From assembly GCA_018896645.1 (NCBI GenBank), contig JAHIMF010000005.1, forward strand, positions 997-64,996: a stretch of DNA of 64,000 nucleotides, written 5' to 3'. Below, piece by piece: positions 12,508 through 60,149 of this stretch. The notes beneath the pieces were generated by a model. It ran no database searches. It was not told the DNA's origin and saw only the letters and a list, made by a program, of their open reading frames with translations. Origin of the DNA: Patescibacteria group bacterium. Its GTDB lineage: Bacteria; Patescibacteriota; Patescibacteriia; UBA2591; JABMQE01. Each line of letters starts with the position of its first letter. Position 1 is the stretch's first letter. Position numbers and translations under genes: made by a program.

Positions 12508-12582
12508 AGCTGTTCCCCCTTTGATAGTTTGAATGTTTTGTTATTTGTTGTTTATTTAAAACATTCCCTAAATAAATATTAC

Positions 12583-13634: not shown

Positions 13635-13635
13635 T

Positions 13636-13863
13636 ATGAGTTCAAAACTCCCTTCAGTAAAACCCAAAGAGCTTATAAAAGCCCTACTAAAGTTAGGATT
13701 TATAAAACGCCGTCAAACAGGGAGCCATTTAGTGATGCGCCATCCCCAGACAAAAGAAATAGTTATAATTGCGATTCATCCAAGAGATCTTAAGAGAGGA
13801 TTTTTAAAAGATACATTAAATCAATTGGGAATATCAGTGGAGGAGTTTAGAAAACTAAAATAG
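13636..13863 (+). CDS. hicA: HicA-family mRNA-interferase toxin
   Basis: KELIKALLKLGFIKRRQTGSHLVMRHPQTKEIVIIAIHP is a YcfA/HicA fold; 1-nt gap after hicB. Confidence 0.8.
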   Translation: MSSKLPSVKPKELIKALLKLGFIKRRQTGSHLVMRHPQTKEIVIIAIHPRDLKRGFLKDTLNQLGISVEEFRKLK

Positions 13864-13907
13864 ATTTCCCCCTTTTTTCTGGGAGGTGAGAATAAGATAG
13901 GGAAAAG

Positions 13908-13957
13908 AAAAGCCGCCTATTAGTCATTCCGAATAGGCGGCTTTTCTTTTTCCTAAA
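13908..13957 (+). terminator. Rho-independent terminator after hicA (aaaagccgcctattagtcattccgaataggcggctttt + T-run)
   Basis: Perfect 13-bp stem followed by ttctttttcc. Confidence 0.8.
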
Positions 13958-13976
13958 AATCCGCTAAAATAGGGTT

Positions 13977-14924
13977 ATGAATGAAAAAGTTGATTTATCT
14001 ATAATTATTGTTTCTTGGAATGTCAAGGAATTGCTTAAAAAGTGCCTTGGCTCTATTTATAATAATCAAGGTGATTTGAAGCTTGAAATTTTTGTGGTTG
14101 ATAATGCGTCTAAAGATGGAAGCATCGAAGAAATTGAGAAACTAAGCCAGCCAGAGGCTGGTCAGCCTTTGGCTGAAAATAAAGAAATAAAGGACTTGAA
14201 TTTGAAAATTATTAAGAATAAGAAGAATTTGGGCTTTACTAAGGCGAATAATCAGGCGATAAAAAGAGCTCAAGGCGAATTTATTTTATTATTAAATCCA
14301 GATGCCGAGGTAATTAATGGCGCCTTGGAAAAGATGGTTGAGTTTATGCGTGAGCATAAAAAGTGCGGAGTGGCGGGGTGTAAATTATTGAATTCTGATG
14401 AGAGTCTGCAGCCATCAGTGCGAAGATTCCCAACATTTTGGTCGCAGGCGATGATAATGTTAAAATTGCATCATTTGTTTCCCAATGCCGGACCAATAAA
14501 AAAATATTTTGCCAAGGATTTTGATTATCGAGGTATGGGTCAAGGGACCCATACCTACCCGTGCGACCAAGTCATGGGCGCTTTTTTTATGATTCGGCGC
14601 GAGGTGATTGAAAAAATTGGAATGCTTGATGAAAATTTCTTTATTTGGTTTGAAGAAGTTGATTTTTGTAAACGGGTTAAAGATGCTGGCTGGCAAGTTT
14701 GCTATACACCGGAAGCCGAGATAATCCATCATGGCGCTCAAAGTTTTAAGCAAGTGTTGAGTTTTAAAAAACAACGAATGTTTAATCGAAGCTTGCTATA
14801 CTATTTCAAGAAGCATAAACCCTGGTGGCAATGGTTGGGGTTGATGTTGCTACAGCCAATAAGTTTAGGGTTGTCGGTGATAATTCAAATATTTGCTAAA
14901 AAAAGTAATAAAGTAATCGAGTAA
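13977..14924 (+). CDS. Glycosyltransferase family 2
   Basis: LSIIIVSWNVKELLKKCLGSI...FVVDNASKDGS...LLLNPDAEV; contains the palindrome gtatgggtcaagggacccatac at about 14533-14556. Confidence 0.85.
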   Translation: MNEKVDLSIIIVSWNVKELLKKCLGSIYNNQGDLKLEIFVVDNASKDGSIEEIEKLSQPEAGQPLAENKEIKDLNLKIIKNKKNLGFTKANNQAIKRAQGEFILLLNPDAEVINGALEKMVEFMREHKKCGVAGCKLLNSDESLQPSVRRFPTFWSQAMIMLKLHHLFPNAGPIKKYFAKDFDYRGMGQGTHTYPCDQVMGAFFMIRREVIEKIGMLDENFFIWFEEVDFCKRVKDAGWQVCYTPEAEIIHHGAQSFKQVLSFKKQRMFNRSLLYYFKKHKPWWQWLGLMLLQPISLGLSVIIQIFAKKSNKVIE

Positions 14925-14991
14925 TCAGGTAATAAGGTCGAGAATTTATTATGTACCAGATTACTTTATTACTTTTTTACTCAATTATTTT

Positions 14992-16578
14992 ATGTTTGGA
15001 CAATTTTTTAAGAAAACATTACTTTTTGTTATTTTAGCAGAGCTTTTTTCATTGCTCGCTTTTTTGGTTCTCCAATTCATGCCTTTTGCCTTTTGGATTT
15101 TGGTGGGTTTATTTTTCATAATCTGTCTTTGGAAAATAGAGTATGGGTTATACCTGCTGTTAGCCGAGCTTTTTATTGGCTCCAAAGGTTATTTATTTTT
15201 TTATGAAGTGGGCGGTGTTCTCGTTTCAATTCGAATCGCTCTTTTTTTGGTGTTTATGGCGGTCTGGTTAAGTAAGACACTGATAGCCACGGATTTCATA
15301 CGGATAGCCACAGATCACGGATTTAAACTGACAAAATTCCATATTTTCAATAAAAGAATTATTCCAGCCAAAGGCTGGTCCGCCTCTGGCGGAACTTATT
15401 ACTTATTACTTATTACTTTTATAGTAATCGGATTAGCCAATGGATTACTACGAACTAGTCCATTCAACGATGTCTTTTTTGACTTTAACGCTTGGGTCTA
15501 CTTTGCCTTGTTCATACCATTTTTAGATATTATTAGGTCTCAAAAAGTTATAAATAACATTATCCAGATTTTCATCGCAGCCATTACCTGGATAGCCGTG
15601 AAGACAATAGTGGTATTTTATCTATTTGGTCATCAGTTTTTTAATATCACTCCATTTTACAAATGGCTTCGGGATTCCGGAGTGGGGGAGATAACTTTGA
15701 TGGCTGGTAATTTTTATCGAGTGTTTTTCCAGTCGCAGATTTTTATAATTATTGGCGCGATGTTACTTGTTGGTTTGTTAATTTATAATGTTAGGACTAA
15801 TAAAAGAAATTTATTACTTTATTATCAGCCAAAGGCTGACCAGCCTCTGGGTGGCTTTATTACTTTATTACTTTTTACTTCTATAATCATCAGTTTTGCG
15901 CGAAGTTTTTGGGTGGGCTGGATTGCTGGTTTGGGCCTACTCTTTTTATATTTAATATTGAAGGAAAAATTTTCTTGGCCAATGATTCTTAAAACAGTTG
16001 GAGCATTTTTGGTTTTTCTGATCATTTCGTCAGGAATAATTTTTGGAATCATGAAACTCCCGCCAAAAACAAGCAACAATGCTTCTTTTGCTAGCTTGGT
16101 TGAAAAGCGGGTTTCCACTATTGAAGCCGCTGGTTCAAGCCGAATAAATTTGCTAAAACCGCTTCTGCAAGAAAATTTAAAACATCCAATTTTGGGTGCT
16201 GGTTTTGGCGCCACGGTGACTTACCAAAGCAATGACCCGCGGATTAGAACCGAGCTTAATCCAGAGGGTTGGTATACAACTTATGCTTTTGAATGGGGAT
16301 ATTTGGACATTTGGTTAAAAATAGGGATTATCGGACTGGCTGTATATTTATTATTTATTTTGATGATTATGAAACAAGGACTGAAAAAGTTTAAGGGAAT
16401 TGAGAATAATGGTTTGAATAAGGGAGTGTGTTTAGGATTATTGGCGGGGATGGCTGTTTTACTAGTTATTAATATCTTTAGTCCTTATTTAAATCATCCC
16501 TTGGGGATCGGGTATATTTTGTTGTGCGGGGCGATATTTACATCATTGAAAAGTAAGGTGGACTATTCGGGCGAATAG
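14992..16578 (+). CDS. O-antigen polymerase/ligase-like (Wzy/WaaL family) polytopic membrane protein
   Basis: About 12 TM helices with a large periplasmic loop; sits within the glycosyltransferase cluster. Confidence 0.6.
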   Translation: MFGQFFKKTLLFVILAELFSLLAFLVLQFMPFAFWILVGLFFIICLWKIEYGLYLLLAELFIGSKGYLFFYEVGGVLVSIRIALFLVFMAVWLSKTLIATDFIRIATDHGFKLTKFHIFNKRIIPAKGWSASGGTYYLLLITFIVIGLANGLLRTSPFNDVFFDFNAWVYFALFIPFLDIIRSQKVINNIIQIFIAAITWIAVKTIVVFYLFGHQFFNITPFYKWLRDSGVGEITLMAGNFYRVFFQSQIFIIIGAMLLVGLLIYNVRTNKRNLLLYYQPKADQPLGGFITLLLFTSIIISFARSFWVGWIAGLGLLFLYLILKEKFSWPMILKTVGAFLVFLIISSGIIFGIMKLPPKTSNNASFASLVEKRVSTIEAAGSSRINLLKPLLQENLKHPILGAGFGATVTYQSNDPRIRTELNPEGWYTTYAFEWGYLDIWLKIGIIGLAVYLLFILMIMKQGLKKFKGIENNGLNKGVCLGLLAGMAVLLVINIFSPYLNHPLGIGYILLCGAIFTSLKSKVDYSGE

Positions 16579-16735
16579 TCCACTGATAAATTTTACGGTT
16601 TGACGGTTTGAACTGTCATGCCGAAAAAATTTGACCGTTTGGACGGTCATAGTATAGTTATGCAATTTGACATAATGAACCATCATACCGTTAAATTTTT
16701 GCAAAAAGAAAAAGGAACCATTCGCGCGAATGGTT
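16559..16735. repeat. Cluster of palindromic repeats: ggactattcgggcgaatagtcc, (t)gaccgtttggacggtcat x2, ggaaccattcgcgcgaatggttcc
   Basis: Perfect palindromes visible in the sequence. The same families recur at 10520, 11651, 12125, 58858, 61001 and 61339. Confidence 0.7.
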
Positions 16736-16748
16736 CCATGCTCATTAT

Positions 16749-17059
16749 TTATAAAATGAGATCAATCCGTGATAATACTTGCTTTATTGATAAATTCATC
16801 CCAGTGATGAGTTTTAAAAATTCCTTTGATGCCCTCCACATCTTCCGTGAAATTTTTCGGAAGTTGCCAGCCCCTTTCATGAACGTAAATAAACCCCATC
16901 TTTTCATATATCTATCCCCGGATTCACTCCTTTCCACCCCTGGTGTAGCAGGTTGTAAGGCGTGCCTTTCGGTAATATGATACCCGCATCATGACTCAAA
17001 TTATCTGGTCTATAAGAACAAACGCAAAACATGGTTTCTTCTTCTAATCTTCGTCTCAT
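16749..17059 (-). pseudogene. Possible frameshifted gene remnant in the 560-nt gap between the polymerase and the next GT2
   Basis: Minus strand: ATG about 17059 gives MRRRLEEETMFCVCSYRPDNLSHDAGIILPKGTPYNLLHQGWKGVNPGIDI then a stop. An overlapping second frame continues as ...YMKRWGLFTFMKGAGNFRKISRKMWRASKEFLKLITGMNLSIKQVLSRIDLIL. No family recognised. Confidence 0.25.
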
Positions 17060-17139
17060 TTTGTGTTCCCCTAAGTTTGATTATAGAGTGTACTATATGG
17101 ACTATTATCGTATTATTATACTAAATCAATTCTCAAAAA

Positions 17140-18126
17140 ATGTCCCCCCTCATCACAATCGTCATCATCACCTGGAACAGCCGCAAATTTTTGCCATACT
17201 GCCTGGAATCAATCTTTGAACAAACATTCAAGGATTTTTCAATTATTATTGTTGACAATGGCTCAACTGATGGTACAGTTGAATATATCAAACAAGAGTA
17301 TCCCATGGCGACCTGTTTAAAGAATTTTAAAAATCTTGGTTTTTGCCGCGCTAATAATCAGGGCATTCATTTGGCAAAAGGCGAGTATGTTTTGCTATGC
17401 AATACTGATATAATTTTGAAAAATGATTTTTTAAAAAATGCGATGAAGACAATAGAATCTGATAAAAATATTGCTAGTGTGGGCGGAAAATTGCTTAAAG
17501 CTAAATGGGACTCTGAAGAATTGCCAAAACCCATAAAAACTGATATAATAGACTCTTGCGGTTTGCGGGTTTTAAAAAGTCACCACGTTGTAGAGCGGGG
17601 TGAAAATGAAAAAGATGAAGACCAGTACAGCAAACCGGAAGAAATTTTTGGAATTTCTGGTGCCTTAATGCTTCTTCGTAAGTCAGCTCTTGAAGACATT
17701 AAATATAAAGAAGAATATTTTGATGAAAATTTCTTTTCCTATAAAGAAGACGTTGACTTAGATTGGCGATTCCGTCTGGCTGGGTATATATCTCGGTATA
17801 ATCCCCAAGCTCACGCTTATCATTTTCGGGGTGTAAGCAAAGGTGATGACCGCAAAACACGCTCAAAGTTAATAAATCAATTATCCTACAAAAATCACTT
17901 ACTATCACTCCTCAAAAATTTGACTTTTGCCAACCTGGTTTTTTACTTTCCTTTTATATTTTTTTATGAGCTGAAAAAGTTGGTTTATGTTTTGCTTTTC
18001 GAGCAGTCAACATTTCCTGGTTTATTCAAATTTTTTAGTCAGTTAGGCGAGACTTTGGATAAGAGGAGATTTATTATGAAAGGGAAGCAGGTGAGCGATA
18101 AAGAGATAAGGGGGTGGATTACCTAA
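17140..18126 (+). CDS. Glycosyltransferase family 2
   Basis: ITIVIITWNSRKFLPYCLESIFEQTF...IIVDNGSTDGT...LLCNTDIIL. Confidence 0.85.
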   Translation: MSPLITIVIITWNSRKFLPYCLESIFEQTFKDFSIIIVDNGSTDGTVEYIKQEYPMATCLKNFKNLGFCRANNQGIHLAKGEYVLLCNTDIILKNDFLKNAMKTIESDKNIASVGGKLLKAKWDSEELPKPIKTDIIDSCGLRVLKSHHVVERGENEKDEDQYSKPEEIFGISGALMLLRKSALEDIKYKEEYFDENFFSYKEDVDLDWRFRLAGYISRYNPQAHAYHFRGVSKGDDRKTRSKLINQLSYKNHLLSLLKNLTFANLVFYFPFIFFYELKKLVYVLLFEQSTFPGLFKFFSQLGETLDKRRFIMKGKQVSDKEIRGWIT

Positions 18127-18228
18127 TTTACTATTTATCATTTACTATTTACTATTCTTTTTGTGGAGGACCGAAGGTTAGTATATCAGTATAATTTTGA
18201 ATAGTAAATAATAAATAGTAAATAATAA

Positions 18229-19032
18229 ATGGTGGAATTATCAATAATCATTTTAAATTACAAGCAACGGGGACTAGTCAAGCAGTGTGTCAAAGGGATA
18301 TTGTCCCTATGTTTAGTTTTTGATTACGAAATTATTGTTGTTGACAATGATTCTCGTGATGGGTGCCTAAAAATGATTAAAAAGCAATTCAATAACTCCA
18401 GAATTAAGACTATTCAATCAGATAAAAATCTTGGCATGGGTGCGGGTAATAATTTGGGTATTAGACAAGCGCAAGGTGAATATATTTTAATTCTTAATCC
18501 TGATATTACATTGCTTGAAGGCGCTATTGAGAAAATGATTAAGTTCATGAAAGAAAGCTCTAGGGTTGGTATTCTGGCGCCAAAATTACTTAATCCAGAC
18601 AGAAGCGTGCAATACGCGCAATTCCGATTCCCAGATTTTTGGCGGCCGCTTTACCGCCGTACTCTGTTAGGTAAAACCGCTTGGGGCAAAAAAAGATTAG
18701 AAGACTTTTTAATGTTTGATTGGGATAGAAAGTCCGCGCGAAAGATTGATTGGGCGCTCGGAGCTTGCCTGTTAATTCGTAAGCTAGCGCTTGATTCTAT
18801 CGGACTTTTTGATGAACGATTCTTCTTGTTTTTTGAAGATACTGATTTATGCCGGCGGTTTTGGAACAATAGTTGGGAAGTATGGTGTCTGCCAGAAGCA
18901 GAAATGGTTCATTATCCGGAACGGCTTTCTGCTAAAAAAATAAATTTACAAAATTTATTTTCAAAACCAGTCCGAGCGCATTTAATTTCGCAGATGAAAT
19001 ATTTTTGTAAGTGGAGAAAATACACTAATTAA
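18229..19032 (+). CDS. Glycosyltransferase family 2
   Basis: LSIIILNYKQRGLVKQCVKGI...IIVVDNDSRDG...LILNPDITL. Confidence 0.85.
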   Translation: MVELSIIILNYKQRGLVKQCVKGILSLCLVFDYEIIVVDNDSRDGCLKMIKKQFNNSRIKTIQSDKNLGMGAGNNLGIRQAQGEYILILNPDITLLEGAIEKMIKFMKESSRVGILAPKLLNPDRSVQYAQFRFPDFWRPLYRRTLLGKTAWGKKRLEDFLMFDWDRKSARKIDWALGACLLIRKLALDSIGLFDERFFLFFEDTDLCRRFWNNSWEVWCLPEAEMVHYPERLSAKKINLQNLFSKPVRAHLISQMKYFCKWRKYTN

Positions 19033-20605: not shown

Positions 20606-21613
20606 GTGTTCATAAAAAAAATCGGAATTGACTTAGGCACTGCCAATACCCTAGTTTTTCTCCCAAAACGAGGCATTGTTGTTAATGAACCCAGTGTGGT
20701 GGCTATTTCTAAAATAGACAAAAAGGTTTTAGCGGTCGGGAGTGAGGCCAAGGAAATGCTTGGCCGGACACCGGACACCATTATTGCCTTAAAGCCCTTG
20801 AAAGATGGCGTGATTGCTGATTATAAAACTACCGAAGCCATGCTACGTTATTTTATTGGCAAGGCGATTGGCGGTTTTCGTTTATTCCGGCCAGAGGTTA
20901 TGGTTTCGGTACCCGCCGGGATTACTTCAACAGAGAAACGAGCAGTTATTGACGCTACTATGACCGCAGGCGCTAAAGCGGCCTATATTATTAAAGAACC
21001 CATTGCCGCAGCTATTGGCGCCAATATCCCGATTGGTTCCGCTTCCGGCCACATGATAATTGATATGGGCGGCGGGACCAGCGAGATGGCAGTTATTTCT
21101 TTAGGCGGTATTGTGGCATCTACTTCAGTTCGGGTAGCTGGTAATAAGTTTGATATAGCAATCTCTAATTATATTAGAAAAAAGTATAATTTGGCAATTG
21201 GGGAGCGGACTGCTGAACGAATTAAAATTGAAATTGGTTCGGCCCTGTATTTAGAAAAAAAATTGAGCACTGATATCCGTGGTCGTGATATGATTAATGG
21301 TTTACCCAGGACCATTACGATAACCTCTGATGATGTTACTGCGGCTATCCAAGATGAATTAGAAGAGATTATCTCGGCTTTAAAATCGGTTTTGCACAAG
21401 ACCCCCCCAGAACTTTCAGCTGATGTTATGGATAAAGGCATGGTCCTGGCTGGCGGCAGCAGCATGCTTAGGAATATTGATAAATTATTTTCCCAAGCCA
21501 CTGGCGTACCGGCTTATGTTGCTGATGAGCCCCTGCTTTGCGTAGCCCGGGGTACGGGTATTGCTCTGGATAATTTAGAAAGCTATAAGAGGTCGATATT
21601 GGCAGCGAAATAG
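20606..21613 (+). CDS. mreB: Rod-shape-determining protein MreB (actin homologue), copy 1
   Basis: IGIDLGTANTLVF, DMGGGTSEMAVISLGG, VLAGGSSMLRNID. Confidence 0.9.
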   Translation: MFIKKIGIDLGTANTLVFLPKRGIVVNEPSVVAISKIDKKVLAVGSEAKEMLGRTPDTIIALKPLKDGVIADYKTTEAMLRYFIGKAIGGFRLFRPEVMVSVPAGITSTEKRAVIDATMTAGAKAAYIIKEPIAAAIGANIPIGSASGHMIIDMGGGTSEMAVISLGGIVASTSVRVAGNKFDIAISNYIRKKYNLAIGERTAERIKIEIGSALYLEKKLSTDIRGRDMINGLPRTITITSDDVTAAIQDELEEIISALKSVLHKTPPELSADVMDKGMVLAGGSSMLRNIDKLFSQATGVPAYVADEPLLCVARGTGIALDNLESYKRSILAAK

Positions 21614-23814: not shown

Positions 23815-24210
23815 ATGAAAAACAAAAGATTACAAAGTCATAAAAAAATGATTGTATGGCAAAGTATTGATCAACTTGACTTTATTGTGCAGAAAATTTT
23901 AAAAAGAATACCTCGGCATGAATTTAAAATGAAAAGTCAGATCGATAACGCGTCGGATTCTATGGGTTCTAATTTTGTAGAAGGTTATTATAGTGGCTCA
24001 TTGGGTGAGTACATGAGATTCCTTAGATATAGCAAAAGGTCAAACGCAGAGCTTCAAGAAAGAGTAAGACGAGTTTTACGAAAGGGTCATATAGATAAAA
24101 ATCTATACGATGAATTTGAAGACAGAGCTATTAAAACCATGTATTTACTTGACCGTTTAATTCAGTCATTAGAAAATAAGCAAAATGATGAAAAGAACAA
24201 ACCTTCTTAA
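23815..24210 (+). CDS. Four-helix-bundle protein (23S rRNA intervening-sequence protein family)
   Basis: QIDNASDSMGSNFVEGYYSGSLGEYMRFLRYSKRSNAELQERV matches the four-helix-bundle family consensus. Confidence 0.75.
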   Translation: MKNKRLQSHKKMIVWQSIDQLDFIVQKILKRIPRHEFKMKSQIDNASDSMGSNFVEGYYSGSLGEYMRFLRYSKRSNAELQERVRRVLRKGHIDKNLYDEFEDRAIKTMYLLDRLIQSLENKQNDEKNKPS

Positions 24211-24367
24211 TCTTCTTGCCCCATAGCCTTACCCGCCTCCTTATGCCTTCTTATCCCTTATAAAATTATTAGAAAATAAGCAAAATGATGAAAAGAACAA
24301 ACCTTCTTAATCTTCTTGCCCCATAGCCTTACCCGCCTCCTTATGCCTTCTTATCCCTTATAAAATT
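24168..24367 (+). repeat. Perfect 100-nt tandem duplication covering the 3' end of the 4HB gene and the frr leader; a 35-nt partial copy lies upstream at about 23779-23814
   Basis: The unit attagaaaataagcaaaatgatgaaaagaacaaaccttcttaatcttcttgccccatagccttacccgcctccttatgccttcttatcccttataaaatt occurs twice back to back. The upstream copy is ccgccttcttatgccttcttatttccctaaattttt. Confidence 0.9.
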
Positions 24368-29656: not shown

Positions 29657-30703
29657 ATGTTCAACAACCTCCTCGGCCGTTTTTCCCGCGATATGGGTAT
29701 AGATTTGGGCACTGCCAATACTTTAGTCTATGTCCGTGATAAAGGAATTGTTATTAACGAGCCCAGTATCGTGGCTATCAATACCCGCGCTGACCAGATT
29801 TTAGCCGTGGGCGAAAACGCCAGGAAAATGTTAGGCAAAACCCCGCCCCATATTATTACTTCAAGACCACTATCCGATGGGGTGATTTCTGATTTTGAAA
29901 TTGCTGAAAGGATGTTAAAACATTTTATTGCCAAGGTTCATCAGGATAAATTTTCTTTTTATACCCGACCCCGAGTAATTATTGGGATTCCCTTGGAAAT
30001 AACTGAAGTAGAGCGTAAAGCAGTTGAAGACGCGGCGATGCAAGCTGGCGCCAGAGAGGTTTTTTTAGTGGAAGAGCCAATGGCCGCGGCAATCGGCGCT
30101 CGCCTTCCAATTCAAGAATCATGCGGTAATATGATTGTTGATATTGGCGGCGGCACTACAGAAATTGCTGTAATTTCCTTGGCAGGTATCGTCACCTGGA
30201 AATCTTTACCAATTGCCGGAAATGAACTAACTGAAGATATTATAGAATATGCCCGCGAAAAATATAATTTACTAATTGGCGAAACCACGGCTGAAGAGAT
30301 AAAAATAAAAATTGGCTCGGTTTTTCCCCTGGAAAAATCTTTAAAAACAATTATGCGGGGTCGGGATTTGGTTTCTGGTCTGCCTAAAGAAGAGACTATT
30401 ACTGATGAAGAGGTGCGAGAAGCGATGCAACGTTCGGCTAAAATCTTGGCTGTTAATATCCGCGATACTATAGAATCTACCCCGCCAGAATTAGTAGCGG
30501 ATATTTATAGCCGAGGCATAGTTTTATCAGGCGGCGGGGCTTTACTTAAAGGACTTCAAGATTTGATTTATAGAGAAGTCCAAGTGCCTATCCACATTAC
30601 TGATGACCCCCTAACTGCGGTGGTTCGCGGTTTAGGAATTATTATAGAAGACATGAATACTCTTAAAGATGTTTTGTTGCCTTCAGCTGGAGAAATCACT
30701 TAA
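29657..30703 (+). CDS. mreB: Rod-shape-determining protein MreB, copy 2, heading an mreBCD-mrdA operon
   Basis: GIDLGTANTLVYV, DIGGGTTEIAVISLAG, VLSGGGALLKGL. Confidence 0.9.
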   Translation: MFNNLLGRFSRDMGIDLGTANTLVYVRDKGIVINEPSIVAINTRADQILAVGENARKMLGKTPPHIITSRPLSDGVISDFEIAERMLKHFIAKVHQDKFSFYTRPRVIIGIPLEITEVERKAVEDAAMQAGAREVFLVEEPMAAAIGARLPIQESCGNMIVDIGGGTTEIAVISLAGIVTWKSLPIAGNELTEDIIEYAREKYNLLIGETTAEEIKIKIGSVFPLEKSLKTIMRGRDLVSGLPKEETITDEEVREAMQRSAKILAVNIRDTIESTPPELVADIYSRGIVLSGGGALLKGLQDLIYREVQVPIHITDDPLTAVVRGLGIIIEDMNTLKDVLLPSAGEIT

Positions 30704-45794: not shown

Positions 45795-46052
45795 ATGAGG
45801 CTTTTTTTATTTGCATTTTATAAATATATTAGCTACAATATAGACATTATGTATAATTGGGATTATAATTTAAAAAATGTTAACAAAAAAGACCCGGTCT
45901 ATATCAAATGGAAACTAGAACGGTTGATTAATTATGGTTTAAATGGCGAAAAAATTAAAAAAATCGAACTAAAAAAATATTGGAATCAAATAAAGATTGA
46001 TCCCGACAAACGAACATTTTTAAAAACAATTTTATGGCCGAAAAAATCATAA
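45795..46052 (+). CDS. Hypothetical small protein upstream of, and overlapping, the AbiEii-like gene (possible truncated antitoxin)
   Basis: ORF only; K-rich; overlaps the next gene by 19 nt. Confidence 0.3.
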   Translation: MRLFLFAFYKYISYNIDIMYNWDYNLKNVNKKDPVYIKWKLERLINYGLNGEKIKKIELKKYWNQIKIDPDKRTFLKTILWPKKS

Positions 46053-46690
46053 CAAAAGAACAGGAGCAATTCTTAGAGTATTTTAAAAAAAATAAATTGC
46101 TGGCCCAAGATTTTTATTTAACCGGGGGCACAGCTTTGGCTTTATTTTATTACCAACATCGCAAGTCCGAAGATCTAGATTTTTTTACTTCAAAGAAAAT
46201 ACCAAATTCAATAATTGATAAATCCATCAAAGATGTTAAAATTAAGCTTAATGCTAGCAAAGTTGAGTATAATCAATTGTATGATCGGCGAATTTATCAA
46301 TTCAAATTAACTAAAAAAGGTATTTTAAAAATAGAGTTCACCTTATATCCATTCAAAAATCTAAAAAAGCTTAAAAAAATCAATGGCGTATTTGTTGATA
46401 GCCTCTTAGATATGGGAGCCAATAAAATTATGTCTATAATGGATAGATTTGAGCCTAAAGATTTTTTTGATTTGTATTTTATGAAAAATGACTTTCGGCT
46501 GGAAAATTTAAGAACCGCAGCTCAAAAAAAGTTCGGTATTGAAATAGACCCGATAGCTTTAGTTAGTCGGTTCAACAAAGTCAAAGATTTAAGGATAATC
46601 CCCCAAATGATAAAAAAAGTTGACATAATAGATTTAAAAAATTATTTTCAAAAGTTTAACAAAAAAGAAGCTAAAATGTTTTTAGTTTGA
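46034..46690 (+). CDS. Nucleotidyltransferase-fold protein, AbiEii/DUF1814-like toxin family
   Basis: FYLTGGTALALFYYQHRKSEDLDFF matches the hG[GS]...S.D.D NTase motif of AbiEii-type proteins. Confidence 0.55.
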   Translation: MAEKIITKEQEQFLEYFKKNKLLAQDFYLTGGTALALFYYQHRKSEDLDFFTSKKIPNSIIDKSIKDVKIKLNASKVEYNQLYDRRIYQFKLTKKGILKIEFTLYPFKNLKKLKKINGVFVDSLLDMGANKIMSIMDRFEPKDFFDLYFMKNDFRLENLRTAAQKKFGIEIDPIALVSRFNKVKDLRIIPQMIKKVDIIDLKNYFQKFNKKEAKMFLV

Positions 46691-49814: not shown

Positions 49815-50780
49815 ATGCAGAAATCATCCAAACCAATCATAAAACATATACTGGATTTTTTAGAATTTTGTGAAGTTGAAAAAGGATTAACTCAAAAATC
49901 TATTGAAAATTATAAAAGATTTTTAGATAAATTTTTAAATTGGTTAAAAAATAAAAAATTACAAAACCTTAAACCTCACGAACTAACTGATAAACATATT
50001 TGGGATTATCGAGTTTATTTATCTAGATACATTGATCCTCGGACCAGCTCTTCCCTATCCCGGCGGACCCAGAACTATTACCTGGTAGTTCTAAGGGTTT
50101 TGTTGGCTTATTTTGCGGATAAAGACATTGAATCCCTGCCATCTGATAAGATTAAATTGCCAAAGCTACGAGACTCGGATAAGGCAATCAAATTTTTGAC
50201 AGTTGAACAAATAGAAAAGCTTCTCTCGGTTACGGACATCAAAACAAAAACCGGCCTGCGTGACCGGACAATCATGGAAGTTTTGTTCAGCACTGGTTTG
50301 CGAGTATCCGAGCTCACGAGCTTAAATCAAGATCAATTTAATCTTTCTTGGATAAAAAAGAATGCCAAATCTTATGAATTAAGCATCACTGGCAAGGGCG
50401 GCCGTACCCGTACGGTTTATTTTTCGCAACGGGCATTATATTGGCTAAATAAATATTTACAAAAGCGGATTGATAATGACAAAGCGCTTTTTATTCATTA
50501 TCATTCGCCTGATAAAGAAACCAAGTCTCATCGATTGACTCCCCGTTCAGTAGCGCGAATTGTGGCCAAATACACTAAAATGGCTGGCTTACCGATTAGC
50601 GCTACGCCCCATACTTTGCGCCATAGTTTTGCTACTGATTTATTAACTCGCGGAGCGGACATTAGAGCAGTCCAAGAGTTTTTAGGCCATAAAAATATTG
50701 TCACTACGCAGGTTTACACTCATGTAACTAACAAAAGATTACGGGATTTGTATGACAAGTTTCATAGCGGAAATAAATAA
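49815..50780 (+). CDS. Tyrosine site-specific recombinase (XerC/XerD-like)
   Basis: Catalytic R...HxxR...Y (ATPHTLRHSFATDLLTRGADIRAVQEFLGHKNIVTTQVYTHV). Confidence 0.88.
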   Translation: MQKSSKPIIKHILDFLEFCEVEKGLTQKSIENYKRFLDKFLNWLKNKKLQNLKPHELTDKHIWDYRVYLSRYIDPRTSSSLSRRTQNYYLVVLRVLLAYFADKDIESLPSDKIKLPKLRDSDKAIKFLTVEQIEKLLSVTDIKTKTGLRDRTIMEVLFSTGLRVSELTSLNQDQFNLSWIKKNAKSYELSITGKGGRTRTVYFSQRALYWLNKYLQKRIDNDKALFIHYHSPDKETKSHRLTPRSVARIVAKYTKMAGLPISATPHTLRHSFATDLLTRGADIRAVQEFLGHKNIVTTQVYTHVTNKRLRDLYDKFHSGNK

Positions 50781-53171: not shown

Positions 53172-54437
53172 TCACGGGAGATAATTGAGTGGATTCACCG
53201 GTATCCCATTCAATCTCACTTCAAAATGCAGATGGGGTCCGCTGCTAAATCTGCCGGCGCCTGGGGTGCCGGGCATACCGCCGGAAAGACCCATCACTTG
53301 GCCTCGCTTTACATAACTATCTTCTTTTACATCAATTCTTGAAAGGTGCCCGTAAACAGTGGAAATGCCATTATTGTGGATAATCATTACATAACTGTAG
53401 CCTGTAGCCCCGCCATTTTTAGCCCGCGCCACATAGCCGGAAGCTGCCGCTCTAACTGAAATGCCATTAGAGGGCACGCCGTCTCTCAAAGTTCTAATAT
53501 CAACGCCTGAATGTTCGCCAATCCAAAGGCGGTAGGGATAGTCCGGGTCATGAAAATAAGCAACGATTTGACGCGACGGAACCGGCCAGGACAAAGTGGC
53601 CGTATCGTTATCTAAATCAGTTCCCCCCTGCTCTTGCTCCTGGGCTTCCAGGGCCGCGCGAATCTTTTGCTCTAAATTTTTCATTTCAACATTTGCTTGT
53701 TCAAATTCCTGACGCGCTAAAACCAGCAAATTTTCAAATTTTCTTTCTGAACTTTTTGTCTGGGCCAGCAAATTGGTTTTCATGCCAGTTTCTTCGGCCA
53801 AGGCATTTTTCTCGGACAAGAGCTCTTCTTTTAAATTTTCTAACTTTTTCTTCTTAGCGCCTAAATTATTTTTCTCTACTACCAGCCTTTCTCTTAATTC
53901 TTGGACTTCACCCAAAGTAATCTGGACATCATTCTGCACACTCTCCAGATATTGAATGTGATTAAAAAAATCAGACAAGTTATCATTAGTCAAAATAATT
54001 TCTATATACCCTTTTTGATCGTATTTGTAGATGGTACGAATAAATTCACCGAGATTAACTTTATTGGTTTCGATTTTTTCTTCCTTATCAGTAATCTCTT
54101 TTTCTACCTTACGAATTTGCAAATCCGCTTCTTCTATCTTAGACTGGGTGAGCTCAATATTTAATTTCGCTTTTTCAATTCGGCTCTCTAAGATACTAAG
54201 TTGATTGCTTAGGCTTAAAGCTTCTTTTTGTTTCTGGGTTATTCTTTCTTGGTATAGCTCACGCTCGGTTTCCAGCTCTTTGATGTACTGTTTCTTTTTG
54301 TTGATTTCTTGTTCTAAAATACTAACCGGGTCCTGGTCATAAGCGGCTAGAACTGGCGAAAATAAAAAGACAGTACAAAAAACTGCCAGAATTATAACTG
54401 TGAAATAATAATTATTTTTTTGTTTCTGTGAATGCAT
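53172..54437 (-). CDS. M23-family peptidase with an N-terminal coiled coil (EnvC-like)
   Basis: Signal/TM, heptad-rich region, M23 motifs (HSGVDI...HNNGISTVYGHLS...GPHLHFEV). Confidence 0.85.
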   Translation of the reverse strand: MHSQKQKNNYYFTVIILAVFCTVFLFSPVLAAYDQDPVSILEQEINKKKQYIKELETERELYQERITQKQKEALSLSNQLSILESRIEKAKLNIELTQSKIEEADLQIRKVEKEITDKEEKIETNKVNLGEFIRTIYKYDQKGYIEIILTNDNLSDFFNHIQYLESVQNDVQITLGEVQELRERLVVEKNNLGAKKKKLENLKEELLSEKNALAEETGMKTNLLAQTKSSERKFENLLVLARQEFEQANVEMKNLEQKIRAALEAQEQEQGGTDLDNDTATLSWPVPSRQIVAYFHDPDYPYRLWIGEHSGVDIRTLRDGVPSNGISVRAAASGYVARAKNGGATGYSYVMIIHNNGISTVYGHLSRIDVKEDSYVKRGQVMGLSGGMPGTPGAGRFSSGPHLHFEVRLNGIPVNPLNYLP

Positions 54438-54760
54438 GGGTTTTCTTAACTCAAATTACAAAATACTGCCAAAGTTTGACATTCTCTGATATTATTATAG
54501 TATAGTTTATTGTTTTAGTAAAATAGATAAGTAGAACGAAAGAACTTGCGGTAGCTATGTGGATAACTTATCTGTGTATGAGACGTTTTGTGCCATATTC
54601 ATAGTATTTTTCATTGATTTAGCATACTCGTTCATTATCAGTAGTCGTTTTGTACTACCCCTGTTTGGAGGCACAAAATTTGGGTAGAATAGAATAAGAA
54701 TAAATTTGCAATTTTTGTCGTGAAATTGTCATTATCTGTTATAGTCAATTTTCACAGAGG

Positions 54761-54832
54761 TGGACCCGACCGGACTTGAACAGGCATAGCACATGTGTCA
54801 AGTATGGCATGTTACCATTACATCACGGGCCC
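54761..54832 (-). tRNA. tRNA-like element (possible divergent tRNA with anticodon GAC, Val, or a pseudogene)
   Basis: Minus strand reads GGGCCCG-TG-ATGT-AATGGTAA-ACAT-...-TTCAAGT-...-CGGGTCC-A. Acceptor stem 7 bp (one G-U), D-arm 4 bp with GG, T-loop TTCAAGT. The anticodon stem has a mismatch and the T-stem has one T-C mismatch. Confidence 0.35.
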
Positions 54833-55135
54833 AGGCCCACCAATTTCAGTATAAAGCAAAAAGAACCCTCTTGCAAGGATTCTTTTTGTTGACACATGCG
54901 CAATATCCGTGATGCGGGTATGCCATATCTAATTGCAGTATAGCACAAGTGATATAAATGTCAAGCGTATTTATCCACAAGCGCAAACTGCTAAATTTGC
55001 GTTAAAAAATTGAGAATCCACATGCCAATTTAACGCAATATGGCTCCACAGTCTCCCTTTGGGAGAACTATGGAGCCCGCGAGGTGTGGAGTCAGCGGGT
55101 CGTTCAAAATTTATTTATGGATATAGGCTTTATGA

Positions 55136-55414
55136 CTATCTACTCTTTAACAATTCATCGATAGCTTCTATAACAGAATTTTCTGCATCTTGTTGCACTT
55201 TTTTTTCACTAAGCTTTCCGTCATATGCCCGTTCTCCAGTTTCTGGCACACTATAAATACCTCCTCTTGCGATACTTTTTAAGAAATTAAGTAGACCTTT
55301 TGCCGAGGTTTTGGAAAGCTCATCCTTTAATTTTTCTAATTTTTGCTTTAACTCTAACGATATTTCACCTTCTTGACTTATTTCTTCGGTTTTTGGATTA
55401 AATTTTTCACTCAT
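55136..55414 (-). CDS. Hypothetical protein (92 aa)
   Basis: ORF with K/E-rich helical N-terminus. Confidence 0.35.
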   Translation of the reverse strand: MSEKFNPKTEEISQEGEISLELKQKLEKLKDELSKTSAKGLLNFLKSIARGGIYSVPETGERAYDGKLSEKKVQQDAENSVIEAIDELLKSR

Positions 55415-55499
55415 ATTAGTTTCCCTTTTTATAACAATTTGGATTAAACTAAATTGTTATATTGATTAAAATTTTTTTAGGATTTAGTTAGTAATGAAT

Positions 55500-55665
55500 A
55501 TGCAAACTTTATCCTTTCAACACTTTTCTCTTTCCCTAAAGCCCTAATAATCTCAAAAACATCCGGGGAGTTTTTTTGACCGGAAACGGCCACGCGCAGG
55601 GGTCAAAAAGTTTCGGAGCGGGTTAAGTTTTGTTCTTCTCGCTTGGAATCAAGGGATTTATTTAG
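55500..55665 (-). pseudogene. Duplicated 3'-end fragment of gltX (about 160 nt, about 80-85% identical to 57060-57225)
   Basis: caacacttttctctttccctaaagccctaataatctcaaaaacatccgggga...ccggaaacggccacgcgcagggg aligns base by base with the true gltX 3' coding end. Confidence 0.7.
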
Positions 55666-56951
55666 CTTTCTCTCAAATATCCCCAGTTATGAAGTTTATC
55701 GCTATCGTTAAACCAACGTTCACCAATATCGTCACGATAATACATGTGGGGGATATTGATGTTTTTAATTCGGTTGTAAGCTTGTTCTTGGGTTTGTTTC
55801 ATGGTTTGACCAGTGCCGCAGACTATCAGCACGACGCCTGATGTTCCAGTAACCAGCCATTCATTATTAATCATTTTAACATCTTCTATGTGAACTCCTT
55901 CGGTAGGTTTTTTAAAAAAGATGACCGAATCTTTGGATTTAACTAGAAAGGTTTGTTTATCGCGGAAAGGGAACGGTGGTACAACAATACGAATACCGAT
56001 TTGGAAACCATTTTTAACTTTTAAAACGGGTTTGTTTCCGGAAGCAAGTTCAAAAAGAAATTCGCTGATAGGCGTAACCATTCCTTCTTGTTGGATGCTG
56101 ATAGTGGGGTAACCAAATCGGGCGGTCCATTCCAATGGGTAGATGCCATTAACATTAACAATGCAGTTAATATCAATATAGCCGATATATTTTTCTTGAG
56201 CGAGAACCGATTCAAATTTTTTTAGGGTGGCGTTAAAAATTTTGTTAGGAGTTGACCAAAACATAACAGTTCCCATTTCCCCAGTAGAAGGACCAAGGTT
56301 GCCGGGAAAGAGTTTTTTGTGCTCAAAGTTAACATTAATTGGATAGATAAATTCTTGGCCGTTAAAGAAGGCGCCGACAGCAATTTCGACACCGACTAAT
56401 CTTTTTTGGAGCTGAAAATTGGGAATTTTTTTGGCCCAGGCTTTGTTGTAATCGTTTAAAACTTGGATAACATCTCGGCCGTCGTCTTCTTCACCGATAA
56501 AAAGCAGGCCTTTTAAGTTTTGGGCCTCGCCGCTCGGTTTGATAACATATTTAGTAGGATTTTCTCGAACAAATTTAATTGCTTCTTCGAAATTAGTGAA
56601 ATTCCAATGAGGAGCTACTGATACGCCATGTTTTTTTAGCTCTTCTTGACCAAAGGCGCGTTCATCCTCAAGACGGTCAGTATACGGTGTTCCGCCGATA
56701 ACTCTTTTGCCTTGGTCGCGTAATTTTTTGGCAAGGGTTCCTTGGCCTAGGACATCATCAAAAATAATGACATCAGCCCATTCGACTTCCTGTTGCCAAT
56801 TAAGAGTTTTTTCAACGAAGCCATCACCGACTTCACGTTCTTCTGACTCTTTAATATAATATTTAGTTTGATGTCCTTCCTTTTTTATTTGCCAGGCGAT
56901 ATCGGTGATCAGGCCGTCGTAGGAATAAAAGAGAAATTTTAGAGGTTTCAT
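55662..56951 (-). CDS. PurD (phosphoribosylamine-glycine ligase)-family ATP-grasp protein, divergent: N-terminal Gly-rich loop not conserved
   Basis: Collinear similarity to PurD across the ATP-grasp and C-domains (PSTGEMGTVMFW vs GPNTGGMGAYSP; IDINCIVNVNGIYPLEWTARFGYPT vs IEFNCRFGDPE; MYYRDDIGERW vs CFCRKDIGWRA). N-terminus FYSYDGLITDIAWQI replaces GNGGREHALAWK. Confidence 0.6.
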   Translation of the reverse strand: MKPLKFLFYSYDGLITDIAWQIKKEGHQTKYYIKESEEREVGDGFVEKTLNWQQEVEWADVIIFDDVLGQGTLAKKLRDQGKRVIGGTPYTDRLEDERAFGQEELKKHGVSVAPHWNFTNFEEAIKFVRENPTKYVIKPSGEAQNLKGLLFIGEEDDGRDVIQVLNDYNKAWAKKIPNFQLQKRLVGVEIAVGAFFNGQEFIYPINVNFEHKKLFPGNLGPSTGEMGTVMFWSTPNKIFNATLKKFESVLAQEKYIGYIDINCIVNVNGIYPLEWTARFGYPTISIQQEGMVTPISEFLFELASGNKPVLKVKNGFQIGIRIVVPPFPFRDKQTFLVKSKDSVIFFKKPTEGVHIEDVKMINNEWLVTGTSGVVLIVCGTGQTMKQTQEQAYNRIKNINIPHMYYRDDIGERWFNDSDKLHNWGYLRES

Positions 56952-57035
56952 TTTTTTGGATGATGAATTATTTTATTATGGGATAGGCGAATTCAACGGA
57001 TTTGTTTTGATTGAATTCGTTGATATTATTCTTAA

Positions 57036-58508
57036 TTATTTTTTAAGTAGATTTAAGGCATGTTTAATTCGTTCAACACTTTTCTCTTTCCCCAAAGCAC
57101 TAATAATCTCAAAAACATCAGGAGAATTTTGTTGGCCGGAAACGGCTACGCGCAGGGGCCAGAGGGCGTCGGAACGCGATAAATTTTGTTTTTCGCGTTG
57201 GGAATCTAATTCTTCTCGTAATTTTTGGCTATTCCCTATTGTTCGATTGCTCGATTGCTCGATTGTCGATAGGGTAAATTCCAAAGCCTTGATTGTTGTT
57301 TCTTTGGTTGATTTTTTGGGAATGAGAAGCCCGGACTTATATTCTAATTTTTCTTGAAAAATAAAGCCAACTAACTCCCCTATCTCGTTTAATCGTTTTA
57401 ATCTGTCTTGGGCGAGTTTGACAATATTTTCGTTTGTTTTTTTGTTTTTTTGTTTTTTTGTTTTTTTTATAAATCCAGCTTCAATTAAAAATGGCAAACA
57501 CAATTCAGTAAGTCGTTCAACTGGCAACTGCCGTATGTACCAACCATTAAGCCAATCCAGTTTTTCAAGATTAAAAATCGCGCCGGCCTTTTGGACTTTT
57601 TGCAATTCAAAATCTTCAATTAACTCATTAGAAGAATATGCCTCTTTGTCCGTACCCGGGTTCCAGCCCAGAAAAGCAATAAAGTTAATCAAAGCTTCTT
57701 TAAGATAACCCTTTTTTAGATAATCTTCAACCGCGACATCACCCTGGCGTTTGGAAAGTTTTGATTTGTTTGGATTGAGAAGAAGCGGAAGATGAGCAAA
57801 CTCGGGAGGCCGCCATTCAAAATATTTATAAAGTAAAATGTGTTTTGGTGTTGAAGACAGCCACTCCTCTCCCCTAATAACATGACTAATTTTCATCTCG
57901 TGGTCATCAACCACACTAGCCAAATGATAGGTTGGGTAACCGTCAGATTTAAGTAAAACTTGGTCGTCAATCAAGTCATTTTCAAATTTAACTTTGCCCC
58001 GCACAATATCTTCAAATTCAGTCATCCCCTGCTCTGGCACTCTCATCCGGATTATATGCGGTTTACTTTCTTTAATATTTTTTTCAACATCTTCCCGGCT
58101 CAACTCACGGCAATGCCCATCATATTTTGGCGGTTCTTTGCGTGTTTGCTGTTCTTTACGCATCTTTTCCAATCGCTCGGTTGAACAAAAACAATAATAA
58201 GCTTTATTATTTTTGACTAATTGTTCAGCGTGCTTTTTATAAATATCCAATCGCTGGGATTGCACTACCACCGGTTCATCACTCTCCATATCAAAATCTT
58301 TGAGCGTTTTAAGTAGTTTTTCAGTAGCGCCTTCGATTTGTCTTTTTTTGTCCGTATCTTCAATCCGAATCAAAAATTTACCCTTATTATGTCGGGTAAA
58401 TAAAAAATTATATAAAGCGCTCCGAAGGCTCCCAACATGGAGAAAACCAGTTGGGCTGGGCGCGAAACGAACGCGGATTGGAGAGGGGGTTGACATAATT
58501 GGGATCAT
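57036..58508 (-). CDS. gltX: Glutamyl-tRNA synthetase
   Basis: HVGSLRSALYNFLF (HIGH region), KLSKR (KMSKS), anticodon-binding domain. Confidence 0.92.
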   Translation of the reverse strand: MIPIMSTPSPIRVRFAPSPTGFLHVGSLRSALYNFLFTRHNKGKFLIRIEDTDKKRQIEGATEKLLKTLKDFDMESDEPVVVQSQRLDIYKKHAEQLVKNNKAYYCFCSTERLEKMRKEQQTRKEPPKYDGHCRELSREDVEKNIKESKPHIIRMRVPEQGMTEFEDIVRGKVKFENDLIDDQVLLKSDGYPTYHLASVVDDHEMKISHVIRGEEWLSSTPKHILLYKYFEWRPPEFAHLPLLLNPNKSKLSKRQGDVAVEDYLKKGYLKEALINFIAFLGWNPGTDKEAYSSNELIEDFELQKVQKAGAIFNLEKLDWLNGWYIRQLPVERLTELCLPFLIEAGFIKKTKKQKNKKTNENIVKLAQDRLKRLNEIGELVGFIFQEKLEYKSGLLIPKKSTKETTIKALEFTLSTIEQSSNRTIGNSQKLREELDSQREKQNLSRSDALWPLRVAVSGQQNSPDVFEIISALGKEKSVERIKHALNLLKK

Positions 58509-58939: not shown

Positions 58940-59554
58940 TCATTTTCCACCCAACTCTTTCAAAATTCCCTTTTTTGTTTTCGCCATTTTTTGTTCGTTG
59001 ATTTTTAGTTCTTCGGCTCTTGTGGTATTTTTTAAAAAAGATAAAAATTGTTTGTTGAGAGATTGCAAATTATTTTTTTTGATTAAATTTTTATATTCCC
59101 GCCAATCAAATTCCGGGAGCAAAGCCAAACTTAAAAGGTCAAGCTCGTCTTTTCGGCCTTTGGTTGAACCTTGTCGATTTTGCCAGGCGTGAAGTTTCAG
59201 CAAAAACAGGATTTCCAATTTTGGCAGATGAAAGCCCTCGCGATTTTGCGCGGTTTTTTTAATACGAGAGAGATCAATCCCTAATTCCGAATAATGCGGC
59301 AGATAAATGTCAATGTCAAATTCGCCGGATTTTATTTCGTATTTTTTGAGGCGATCGTTTTTGAAAACCTCATATTTTTCTTTCAGCCGGGCTAATTCTT
59401 GATATTCTATAATAATATCAATATCTTTGGATTTTAAACTGTGCGAGTATAGAAAAACTGCCCAGCCGCCAATCAAAATAAAATCGTATTCTTGATTAAA
59501 CTTTTGCAAAAATTCAAAACTTTTTTGAGTAATTATGTTATGATAAAATTGCAT
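58940..59554 (-). CDS. Nucleotidyltransferase-fold protein (AbiEii/MNT-like putative toxin)
   Basis: DFILIGGWAVFLYSHSLKSKDIDIII matches the GG...S.D.D polymerase-beta NTase motif. Confidence 0.5.
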   Translation of the reverse strand: MQFYHNIITQKSFEFLQKFNQEYDFILIGGWAVFLYSHSLKSKDIDIIIEYQELARLKEKYEVFKNDRLKKYEIKSGEFDIDIYLPHYSELGIDLSRIKKTAQNREGFHLPKLEILFLLKLHAWQNRQGSTKGRKDELDLLSLALLPEFDWREYKNLIKKNNLQSLNKQFLSFLKNTTRAEELKINEQKMAKTKKGILKELGGK

Positions 59555-59558
59555 AAAT

Positions 59559-60149
59559 TCAAATTAAATTCATTTTTTCTTTAAGGCATTTCAGAAAATC
59601 TTTGGCATACCAATCAGACAGATTCCAAAGGTCGGCAAAAGTTTGGACATCAGGGGTGTTTTCGCCGAAATCTTTCAGGCAAGCATCGGCTTTTAAAACA
59701 AATAAATTTTTCTGGCCTTTTTCTTGAGGAAATCTTTTTTTAACTTCTGCCAATTGGCTGGGGTCGGCGTAAATATAAACTTTGTCGTAGTCAGCCGGAG
59801 ATTCTCGATATTTTTTGGCGTAAGCGCTATAAGCGCCAAAAATAATTGCTTGGGGCATTAGCCCTTCAATTTCATTAGGATTTTTAGCAACATTGGTTGA
59901 GTAAATAATTTCTTTTGTTAAATTCCTTTGAGTAGCCCAGAAATATAAAAATTTTTCTTTGTCTTGGATTAAAAAATTGCGACCGGTTACTTTGACAGCG
60001 CCTGATTGTCTGGGAACTTTCAGGGCGTTAAAAACAGTACTTAAAGAAATCCTAAACTTTTCAGATAGATCTTTTTGGGTAAATTCGATTTTTTTATTGT
60101 CTATGGCTTGATGCAAAATTTCCCGCCAGAGAATTTCTTTTTTGGTCAT
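59559..60149 (-). CDS. wHTH-domain protein, AbiEi-like putative antitoxin/regulator
   Basis: N-terminal HTH (FTQKDLSEKFRISLSTVFNALKV); 4-nt gap to the NTase gene. Confidence 0.4.
   Translation of the reverse strand: MTKKEILWREILHQAIDNKKIEFTQKDLSEKFRISLSTVFNALKVPRQSGAVKVTGRNFLIQDKEKFLYFWATQRNLTKEIIYSTNVAKNPNEIEGLMPQAIIFGAYSAYAKKYRESPADYDKVYIYADPSQLAEVKKRFPQEKGQKNLFVLKADACLKDFGENTPDVQTFADLWNLSDWYAKDFLKCLKEKMNLI

Follow-up and report, generated by a model that had tools for sequence, protein, structure and literature searches.

The gltX locus of a Patescibacteria group bacterium raises the question of how a single gene came to lie between two copies of the 3′-end of an essential gene, and of what that gene encodes. 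In the stretch of DNA analyzed here (64,000 nt of contig JAHIMF010000005.1, hereafter the window), the minus strand carries, in this order, gltX, the gene for glutamate–tRNA ligase; an 84-nt spacer; an open reading frame (ORF) of 429 amino acids; and a second gltX 3′-end. The product of the ORF, here called the ligase, resembles PurD, the phosphoribosylamine–glycine ligase or glycinamide ribonucleotide (GAR) synthetase of purine synthesis. A preliminary description of the locus had interpreted it as a one-gene cassette that integrates into the ends of genes. We conclude that gene transfer has left a clear mark at the locus, but one of an ordinary sort that adds a further case to a type of event already known. 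In the reading that we favor, with a probability of roughly 55%, the ligase gene was acquired once by recombination and not as a self-mobile cassette, an event in which gltX would have been restored and its resident terminus displaced.

Two gltX ends around a single gene

The gltX gene upstream of the ligase is intact, scoring 550 bits against the TIGR00464 gltX_bact model (cut-off 290) and containing the Pfam tRNA-synt_1c and Anticodon_2 domains. Its functional 3′-end (copy B) recurs on the far side of the ligase gene as a fragment, gltX′ (copy A). MAFFT aligns the two segments collinearly and without indels. A blastn search with 55401–55700 against the whole window returns a core of 143 nt (82.5% identity, E = 2.8e-37), and a repeat search gives an ungapped direct repeat of 178 nt at 76% identity (55473–55650 and 57029–57206, spacing 1556 nt), longer than any other direct repeat of the window. 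The preliminary description had estimated a collinear duplication of ~160 nt with ~80 to 85% identity between 55500–55665 and 57060–57225; these alignments confirm it and refine its limits to 55477–55671 and 57036–57227. When GltX is used as a tblastn query, residues 428–490 match 55671–55483 with 73% amino acid identity (E = 1e-21), and a degenerate probe for the peptide NSPDVFEII matches exactly two places, both of them gltX ends, with 0 matches expected in shuffled sequence. An NCBI contig from a metagenome-assembled genome (GCA_018894455.1, "Patescibacteria group bacterium") has the same structure, as does a Logan contig from a separate assembly. The agreement of two independent assemblies makes misassembly unlikely and, together with a repeat that is only 76% identical, led us to reject an assembly artifact.

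The GltX match beginning at 55671 takes in the final three codons of the ligase gene together with its stop (55662–55670), and the downstream joint is therefore flush with the end of that gene, a nonhomologous junction at which the ligase stop abuts gltX codon 428. Toward the other end, similarity between the copies stops at both stop codons, copy A being one codon longer than the GltX end and having a stop of its own, and the hairpins that come after the two copies are different and unrelated in sequence. This is what two orthologous gene ends, each with its own 3′ untranslated region, would look like. Read in the gltX frame, copy A ends with KLNKSLDSKREEQNLTRSETF-stop-PLRVAVSGQKNSPDVFEIIRALGKEKSVERIKFAYSLLTKS-stop, and its counterpart in GltX ends with KLREELDSQREKQNLSRSDALWPLRVAVSGQQNSPDVFEIISALGKEKSVERIKHALNLLKK-stop. 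The change of a conserved tryptophan codon from TGG to TGA is the only inactivating change in copy A, which has no indels. A putative GTG-initiated ORF of 38 amino acids is open within gltX′ downstream of this TGA (55477–55593, minus strand; MAVSGQKNSPDVFEIIRALGKEKSVERIKFAYSLLTKS).

Over 58 aligned codons, the two copies differ at 11 first, 5 second, and 26 third positions. By the Nei–Gojobori method, this corresponds to 1.08 synonymous substitutions per synonymous site (dS) and 0.14 nonsynonymous substitutions per nonsynonymous site (dN), or a dN/dS of 0.13, with no indels and one stop. A local duplicate that was identical at the start and then drifted neutrally in one copy should show a dN/dS of ~0.5 as well as frameshifts by the time dS reaches ~1. 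The mostly synonymous differences therefore indicate that the copies diverged as working gltX ends in different genomes. Judged from this codon pattern, one copy appears to be xenologous and not a decayed local duplicate, and copy A appears to have lost its function only recently. The closest relative of each copy is the other one (79% amino acid identity), followed by P0123 and P0122 with 65 to 70% in this region; since the copies are mutually closest, the foreign one would have come from the same patescibacterial clade. The composition of the ligase gene is host-like (GC content at third codon positions, 0.36; window mean, 0.345 ± 0.038), which fits a donor from this clade. Comparison with P0122 and P0123 did not reveal which of the two is native: both share a few states with these relatives.

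A relative provides the empty site. The nearest GltX relatives among 5.8 billion proteins are 69% and 66% identical, and the locus of the first (L032) shares a block of ~10 kb with the window, comprising the genes for SerRS, an FtsQ-like (POTRA) protein, a Xer-type recombinase, a small ORF, a 324-amino acid protein (encoded where the window has an HD-domain gene), an M23 peptidase, GltX, WecG, and LigT. Just 95 bp separate gltX from the M23 gene in L032, with no ligase between them, and the corresponding gap in the window is ~2.6 kb, occupied by the ligase, gltX′, ORF92, and tRNA-Val. A tRNA search at the L032 locus found none. On this synteny, the ligase gene appears to be an insertion relative to L032, in line with the preliminary description, which had proposed that a single gene was inserted and the gltX end reconstituted: gltX is intact, the ligase is the only gene between the copies, and the displaced 3′-end lies beyond the insert.

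Origin of the insert

We propose that the donor was a related patescibacterium in which the ligase gene already lay downstream of gltX. The incoming DNA would have held at least a gltX 3′-end, its terminator-like hairpin, and the ligase ORF, and would have recombined into the resident gltX, forming the upstream joint through gltX homology and the downstream joint at codon 428 of the resident gene, flush after the ligase stop. A linear fragment might have entered by homology-facilitated illegitimate recombination or a circularized fragment by a Campbell-type single crossover. Both routes would give the same product, namely an intact and probably chimeric gltX, the ligase downstream of it, and beyond that the resident terminus, which would have been displaced and would later have gained its one nonsense mutation. 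Taking copy A as the native end is the more parsimonious reading because the alternative needs a donor in which a truncated gltX was already fused behind the ligase.

The locus has parallels in known systems. Homology-facilitated illegitimate recombination is known from the natural transformation of Acinetobacter and Streptococcus. As in that process, one end of the gltX insert would be anchored by homology (in gltX) and the other joined illegitimately, allowing nonhomologous cargo to enter. The classical outcome is the replacement of recipient DNA, whereas at gltX the homologous segment ends downstream of the illegitimate joint, which results in a duplication. The arrangement also resembles that of phage 21 and e14 in Escherichia coli icd, in which the insert is flanked by repeats of the 3′-end of the target gene, the gene is kept intact, and the native end is displaced beyond the insert. 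There, the surrogate icd 3′-end is ~160 to 190 nt, and most differences between the copies are synonymous. Phage 21 and e14 are, however, complete elements with their own integrase, a defined attachment (att) core, and the same site in many strains, whereas the gltX insert is a single 1.3-kb metabolic-type gene with no recombinase and no recurrence found. As the product of a one-off acquisition, the scar is a clean and datable case in which Patescibacteria, with almost no mobile-element machinery, still acquire single genes, by recombination that is anchored in an essential gene and leaves it intact.

Several points weigh against a one-off acquisition. L032 is a distant relative (69% GltX identity) that also lacks ORF92 and tRNA-Val, and the 2.6-kb difference may be the sum of several events, with ORF92 and tRNA-Val as separate ones. 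GltX relatives more than 70% identical were not found in the collections searched, so neither a parental sequence nor the native copy nor the upstream crossover could be identified. The adjacency of gltX and ligase expected of a donor was found in no other genome (29 genome loci). Finally, the dN/dS is based on only 39 differences, and its low value could also arise if the 38-amino acid GTG-initiated ORF in copy A were translated and selected.

The geometry of the locus is exactly that of elements that replace the 3′-end of a gene (an intact hybrid gene, the cargo, and a displaced, divergent native end), and it could instead have arisen by site-specific integration with reconstitution of the target, in which a small integrative element would bring a substitute gltX 3′-end on its attP, integration would be catalyzed in trans by a tyrosine or serine recombinase, and copies B and A would represent attL and attR. 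Identical runs of 20 to 21 nt within the gltX repeat could act as a core, and a tyrosine recombinase gene lies 5 kb away. We nevertheless consider such an origin improbable. The 1556-bp unit between the repeats fits the ligase alone, which is its sole ORF, and encodes no integrase or recombinase; the nearby recombinase is syntenic in L032, which has no insert, and is therefore a resident Xer-type gene; and no distinct identical core is present at the repeat edges. Nor does the ligase gene behave as a cassette elsewhere. At 0 of 29 genome loci is gltX within 6 kb of the ligase, and blastn and tblastx comparisons found no convincing flanking repeats at any of these loci, with short weak matches in L018, L019, L023, and L025. 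Conserved neighbors of the ligase in cellular loci were not found beyond within-family synteny, and the gene stands alone in unrelated neighborhoods in Planctomycetes, the archaeon GW2011_AR10, and L111. The closest homolog (L110; 87% amino acid and 79% nucleotide identity) shares the ORF alone: similarity begins 2 nt upstream of its ATG, ends 5 nt downstream of its stop, and is absent elsewhere, and the gene upstream of its ligase is on the opposite strand. Neither L110 nor the Planctomycetes and archaeal loci have gltX, convincing repeats at the borders, or conserved flanks. A degenerate probe for the clade-specific gltX end gave 13 matches in Joint Genome Institute metagenomes, one of them a gltX (52% identity), with no close relative or donor among them.

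An integrase-driven cassette with attL/attR-like ends, as envisaged in the preliminary description, is thus not supported, and its picture of the ligase as a traveling one-gene cassette finds no support at the same loci; gltX, flanking repeats, or both are missing from 30 other ligase loci. The further suggestion that the mechanism is shared with other islands of the window (4HB and REC) found no counterpart: when all window proteins were compared with the six-frame translation, no other partial-gene duplicate, and hence no second footprint of this kind, was present in the 64 kb. Use of tRNA-Val as an att site was ruled out by the lack of a duplicated tRNA fragment. An integron cassette was likewise dropped, the hairpins being simple post-stop stem-loops after each gltX end and the sole recombinase being the syntenic Xer-like gene.

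The incoming DNA could also have been larger, such that the entire gltX, possibly with the upstream helix-turn-helix (HTH)/DUF6036 gene pair, came with the ligase and the native gltX survives only as its last 63 codons. The window does differ from L032 upstream of gltX as well, with a 52-amino acid ORF, DUF6036, and HTH196 between gltX and WecG, and the upstream crossover is not located; against such a replacement, the WecG–gltX linkage is kept in both relatives. We regard the replacement of a whole block as unlikely, and it differs from the acquisition proposed above in the position of the left joint alone, making it a variant and not a true alternative. The least probable origin is one in situ, by tandem duplication of a local segment running from codon 428 of gltX through the ligase end, followed by a deletion, with the ligase an older resident and the second end decayed: the copies are indeed mutually nearest relatives and the ligase composition is host-like, but two rearrangements would be required, homology does not extend past the stop codons, the hairpins beyond them being unrelated, and neutral decay predicts a dN/dS of ~0.5, indels, and stops, where 0.13, 26 of 42 differences at third positions, no indels, and one stop are seen.

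The cargo ligase and its relatives

The cargo is a more useful lead than the scar. The ligase matches two Pfam domains, GARS_A at 57 bits and GARS_C at 38.5 bits, but not GARS_N, and it scores 106.4 bits against the TIGR00877 purD equivalog model, well below the cut-off of 288, in a match that begins only at residue 68. The GxGGREHA loop (P-loop) of PurD is replaced by SYDGLITDIA (N-terminal sequence, FYSYDGLITDIAWQ), and the family consensus likewise has no Gly-rich loop; the fold of the N-domain is nonetheless present in the AlphaFold2 model of the ligase (predicted local distance difference test score, 94.9). The PurD sequence E-F-N-x-R-F-G-D-P-E becomes E-W-T-A-R-F-G-Y-P-T, with loss of the Asn and the Asp, so that RFGDPE reads RFGYPT (ligase motif, LEWTARFGYPT; family pattern, [LI]E[FW][TS]xR[FL]G[YF]P; PurD motif PS00184, R[LF]GDPE, as defined in PMC3261824). 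In a fold search, the best PDB matches are GAR synthetases (2yrw, 2yw2, and 1gso), followed by biotin carboxylases, with template modeling scores of 0.71 to 0.79, 16 to 22% identity, and Foldseek E values of about 1e-31 to 1e-27 for the GAR synthetases. No pur gene is present among the annotated genes of the whole window, and the preliminary description was right both in this and in noting that the conserved Gly-rich loop is missing from a PurD-like protein.

What the ligase shares with PurD is the fold, an ATP-grasp A domain and C domain, a loop of the DHKR..GP.TGGMG type, the Glu and Arg of E-x-x-x-R, and a C-terminal YR.DIG. The core ATP-grasp motifs are kept (EHKKLFPG..GP.TGEMG, E274, R278, and YR.DIG), and E189, E210, E274, R278, R406, and D408 are invariant in the family, with K138 and K212 nearly so. 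Unlike PurD, the ligase has no GARS_N match, no P-loop, neither the Asn nor the Asp of the motif, a score below the cut-off, and no pur genes in the window. Motifs and model together place the ligase in the PurD-like branch of the ATP-grasp superfamily, and its motifs mark it as a probable paralog of PurD, not PurD itself, that would act outside purine synthesis. We infer that it is an active carboxylate–amine ligase with an amine substrate other than phosphoribosylamine.

Proteins with similar defects have been described before. The "extra" haloarchaeal PurD-like proteins rrnAC0307 and Hlac_1553, which have no GARS_N match, a divergent P-loop, and a loss of the Asp in R[LF]GDPE, were excluded from the GAR synthetases by Brown et al. 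(2011, Biol Direct 6:63, PMC3261824). The window ligase shares these diagnostic defects, and we liken it to rrnAC0307 and Hlac_1553 by their description; a Halorussus protein annotated as purD (WP_115795769.1) is 55% identical to it over its full length. Unlike the haloarchaeal proteins, the window ligase sits in a much tighter conserved subclade that spans the candidate phyla radiation (CPR), DPANN, and other phyla. A literature search found no characterized member of the family.

The best 120 homologs listed are 73 to 87% identical to the window ligase and come from Patescibacteria, Peregrinibacteria, Planctomycetes, Spirochaetes, Elusimicrobia, and DPANN archaea. Homologs in Steroidobacteraceae, Thermoanaerobaculia, and Chlorobi are 63 to 69% identical, and another patescibacterial homolog (L020) is only 57% identical, so the distribution of the family does not follow taxonomy. 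An exhaustive phmmer search returned 534 clusters at E < 1e-30 (sequences clustered at 50% identity). The alignments of the window ligase with L110, L038, L111, L001, and L002, which include both bacterial and archaeal proteins, are ungapped over 429 amino acids with 77 to 87% identity. Between the window ligase and its nearest relatives, dS is saturated (2.4 or above) and dN is 0.085 to 0.18, and the similarity is therefore a matter of extreme constraint and not of very recent transfer. The ligase has crossed domains as a bare ORF, and its versions in CPR bacteria, DPANN archaea, and Planctomycetes are 74 to 87% identical as proteins. At several DPANN loci, the ligase gene is richer in GC than its surroundings (e.g., 0.42 versus 0.36 in L001).

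Relatives of the ligase are also encoded by viruses. An alignment-based scan of IMG/VR identified 53 contigs (L055–L107) that encode distant homologs with 24 to 45% identity; an exact-peptide scan of the same database gave no match. The viral genes belong to head, packaging, and DNA-metabolism modules of uncultured phages. They follow large proteins of unknown function (an SLT domain is present in one of these), separate terminase from portal, or neighbor PhoH-, DNA-binding-, or SbcC-like genes, often at the end of a structural or packaging module. One 1236-amino acid protein (P0302) is a fusion in which a phage portal domain and a Mu F domain flank the ligase, in the order portal–ligase–MuF. 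Some members of the family carry one or two inteins with LAGLIDADG endonucleases (P0241, P0246, and P0253) at no fewer than two sites, that is, at least one after query residues ~222–228 and one after ~277, with two inteins in P0246. The ligase was found in no cultured phage; INPHARED contains one homolog, from an uncultured phage, its remaining matches being genuine purD, and PHROGs, PADLOC, and BFVD gave no informative ligase match. We tentatively suggest that the cargo may belong to a virus-linked enzyme family with non-PurD chemistry, in which ATP would drive the joining of a carboxylate to an amine that is not phosphoribosylamine, although we hold this to be doubtful. If true, a virus-linked ligase would have a self-contained and important function in ultra-small symbionts without purine synthesis.

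Regardless of its chemistry, the ligase family is a recognized unknown that is widely misannotated as PurD. Thousands of such proteins are labeled PurD in databases, including in organisms unable to make purines, and metabolic reconstructions of CPR and DPANN organisms in which this gene is taken for purD are wrong. The family is a good biochemical target, being nearly invariant across domains and having both phage relatives and inteins.

Features of the locus and of the wider window

The positions of the features discussed above and of their neighbors are collected in Table 1.

Table 1. Annotated features between the Xer-like recombinase gene and gltX (window coordinates)
Feature	Position	Strand	Basis or remark
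gltX, intact glutamate–tRNA ligase gene	57036..58508	−	490 amino acids as ORF, 486 in NCBI call
Copy B, functional gltX 3′-end, codons 428–490 and stop	57036..57227	−	Aligned to copy A
Spacer, 84 nt, gltX stop to ligase ATG	56952..57035	−	Sequence reading, consensus scans
Probable PurD-paralog ATP-grasp ligase, 429 amino acids (cargo)	55662..56951	−	Pfam, TIGR00877, AlphaFold2 model
Copy A, gltX′ pseudogene fragment, equivalent of GltX residues 428–490	55477..55671	−	tblastn, codon alignment
In-frame stop (TGA) of copy A where gltX has the conserved Trp codon TGG	55603..55605	−	Codon alignment
Hairpin 3′ of copy A stop, ATAACAATTT-N10-AAATTGTTAT	55430..55461	−	Inverted self-match
ORF92, 92 amino acids, no family match	55136..55414	−	Absent from syntenic relative L032
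tRNA-Val(GAC)	54759..54832	−	Absent from L032 locus
M23 peptidase gene	53172..54437	−	Directly follows gltX in empty-site relative L032
Tyrosine recombinase (Xer-like) gene	49815–50780		5 kb from insert

The spacer between gltX and the ligase contains the hairpin that follows copy B (CGAATTCAA-N14-TTGAATTCG, ~56993–57023) and, in a consensus scan, a weak promoter-like site (56996–56967); its sequence has no similarity to that 3′ of copy A. A strong promoter-like site (54964–54937) with a near-consensus extended −10 element lies upstream of tRNA-Val, which was the sole match in an Rfam scan of 54.3 to 57.4 kb. The interval between ORF92 and tRNA-Val (54857–55100, minus strand) contains, besides this site, a GC-rich hairpin (GACTCCACA...TGTGGAGCC) and a terminator-like hairpin (54888–54857), and all three gave no Rfam match.

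The block shared with L032 has three other lineage-specific inserts in the window: a 182-amino acid ORF; the 52-amino acid ORF with DUF6036 and HTH genes between gltX and WecG; and an HTH_5 gene. The DUF6036 nucleotidyltransferase and HTH pair (58940–60149, minus strand) is inserted relative to L032, and an AbiEii-family toxin gene (46034–46690, plus strand) lies upstream of SerRS. The pair and the AbiEii gene are likely toxin–antitoxin or abortive-infection modules that form lineage-specific islands in an otherwise syntenic block.

Elsewhere in the window, a perfect tandem duplication of 100 nt (24168–24367, two identical copies) between the 23S_rRNA_IVP-like and ribosome recycling factor genes could be real or an assembly artifact. 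A gene for a UDP-glucose/GDP-mannose dehydrogenase (128–2806, plus strand) is split by a LAGLIDADG intein (Intein_splicing, residues 274–720; LAGLIDADG_3). A polysaccharide cluster (12529–19032, plus strand) includes four paralogous family-2 glycosyltransferase genes that are 24 to 35% identical, and two MreB paralogs with 47% identity are encoded at 20606–21613 and 29657–30703 (plus strand).

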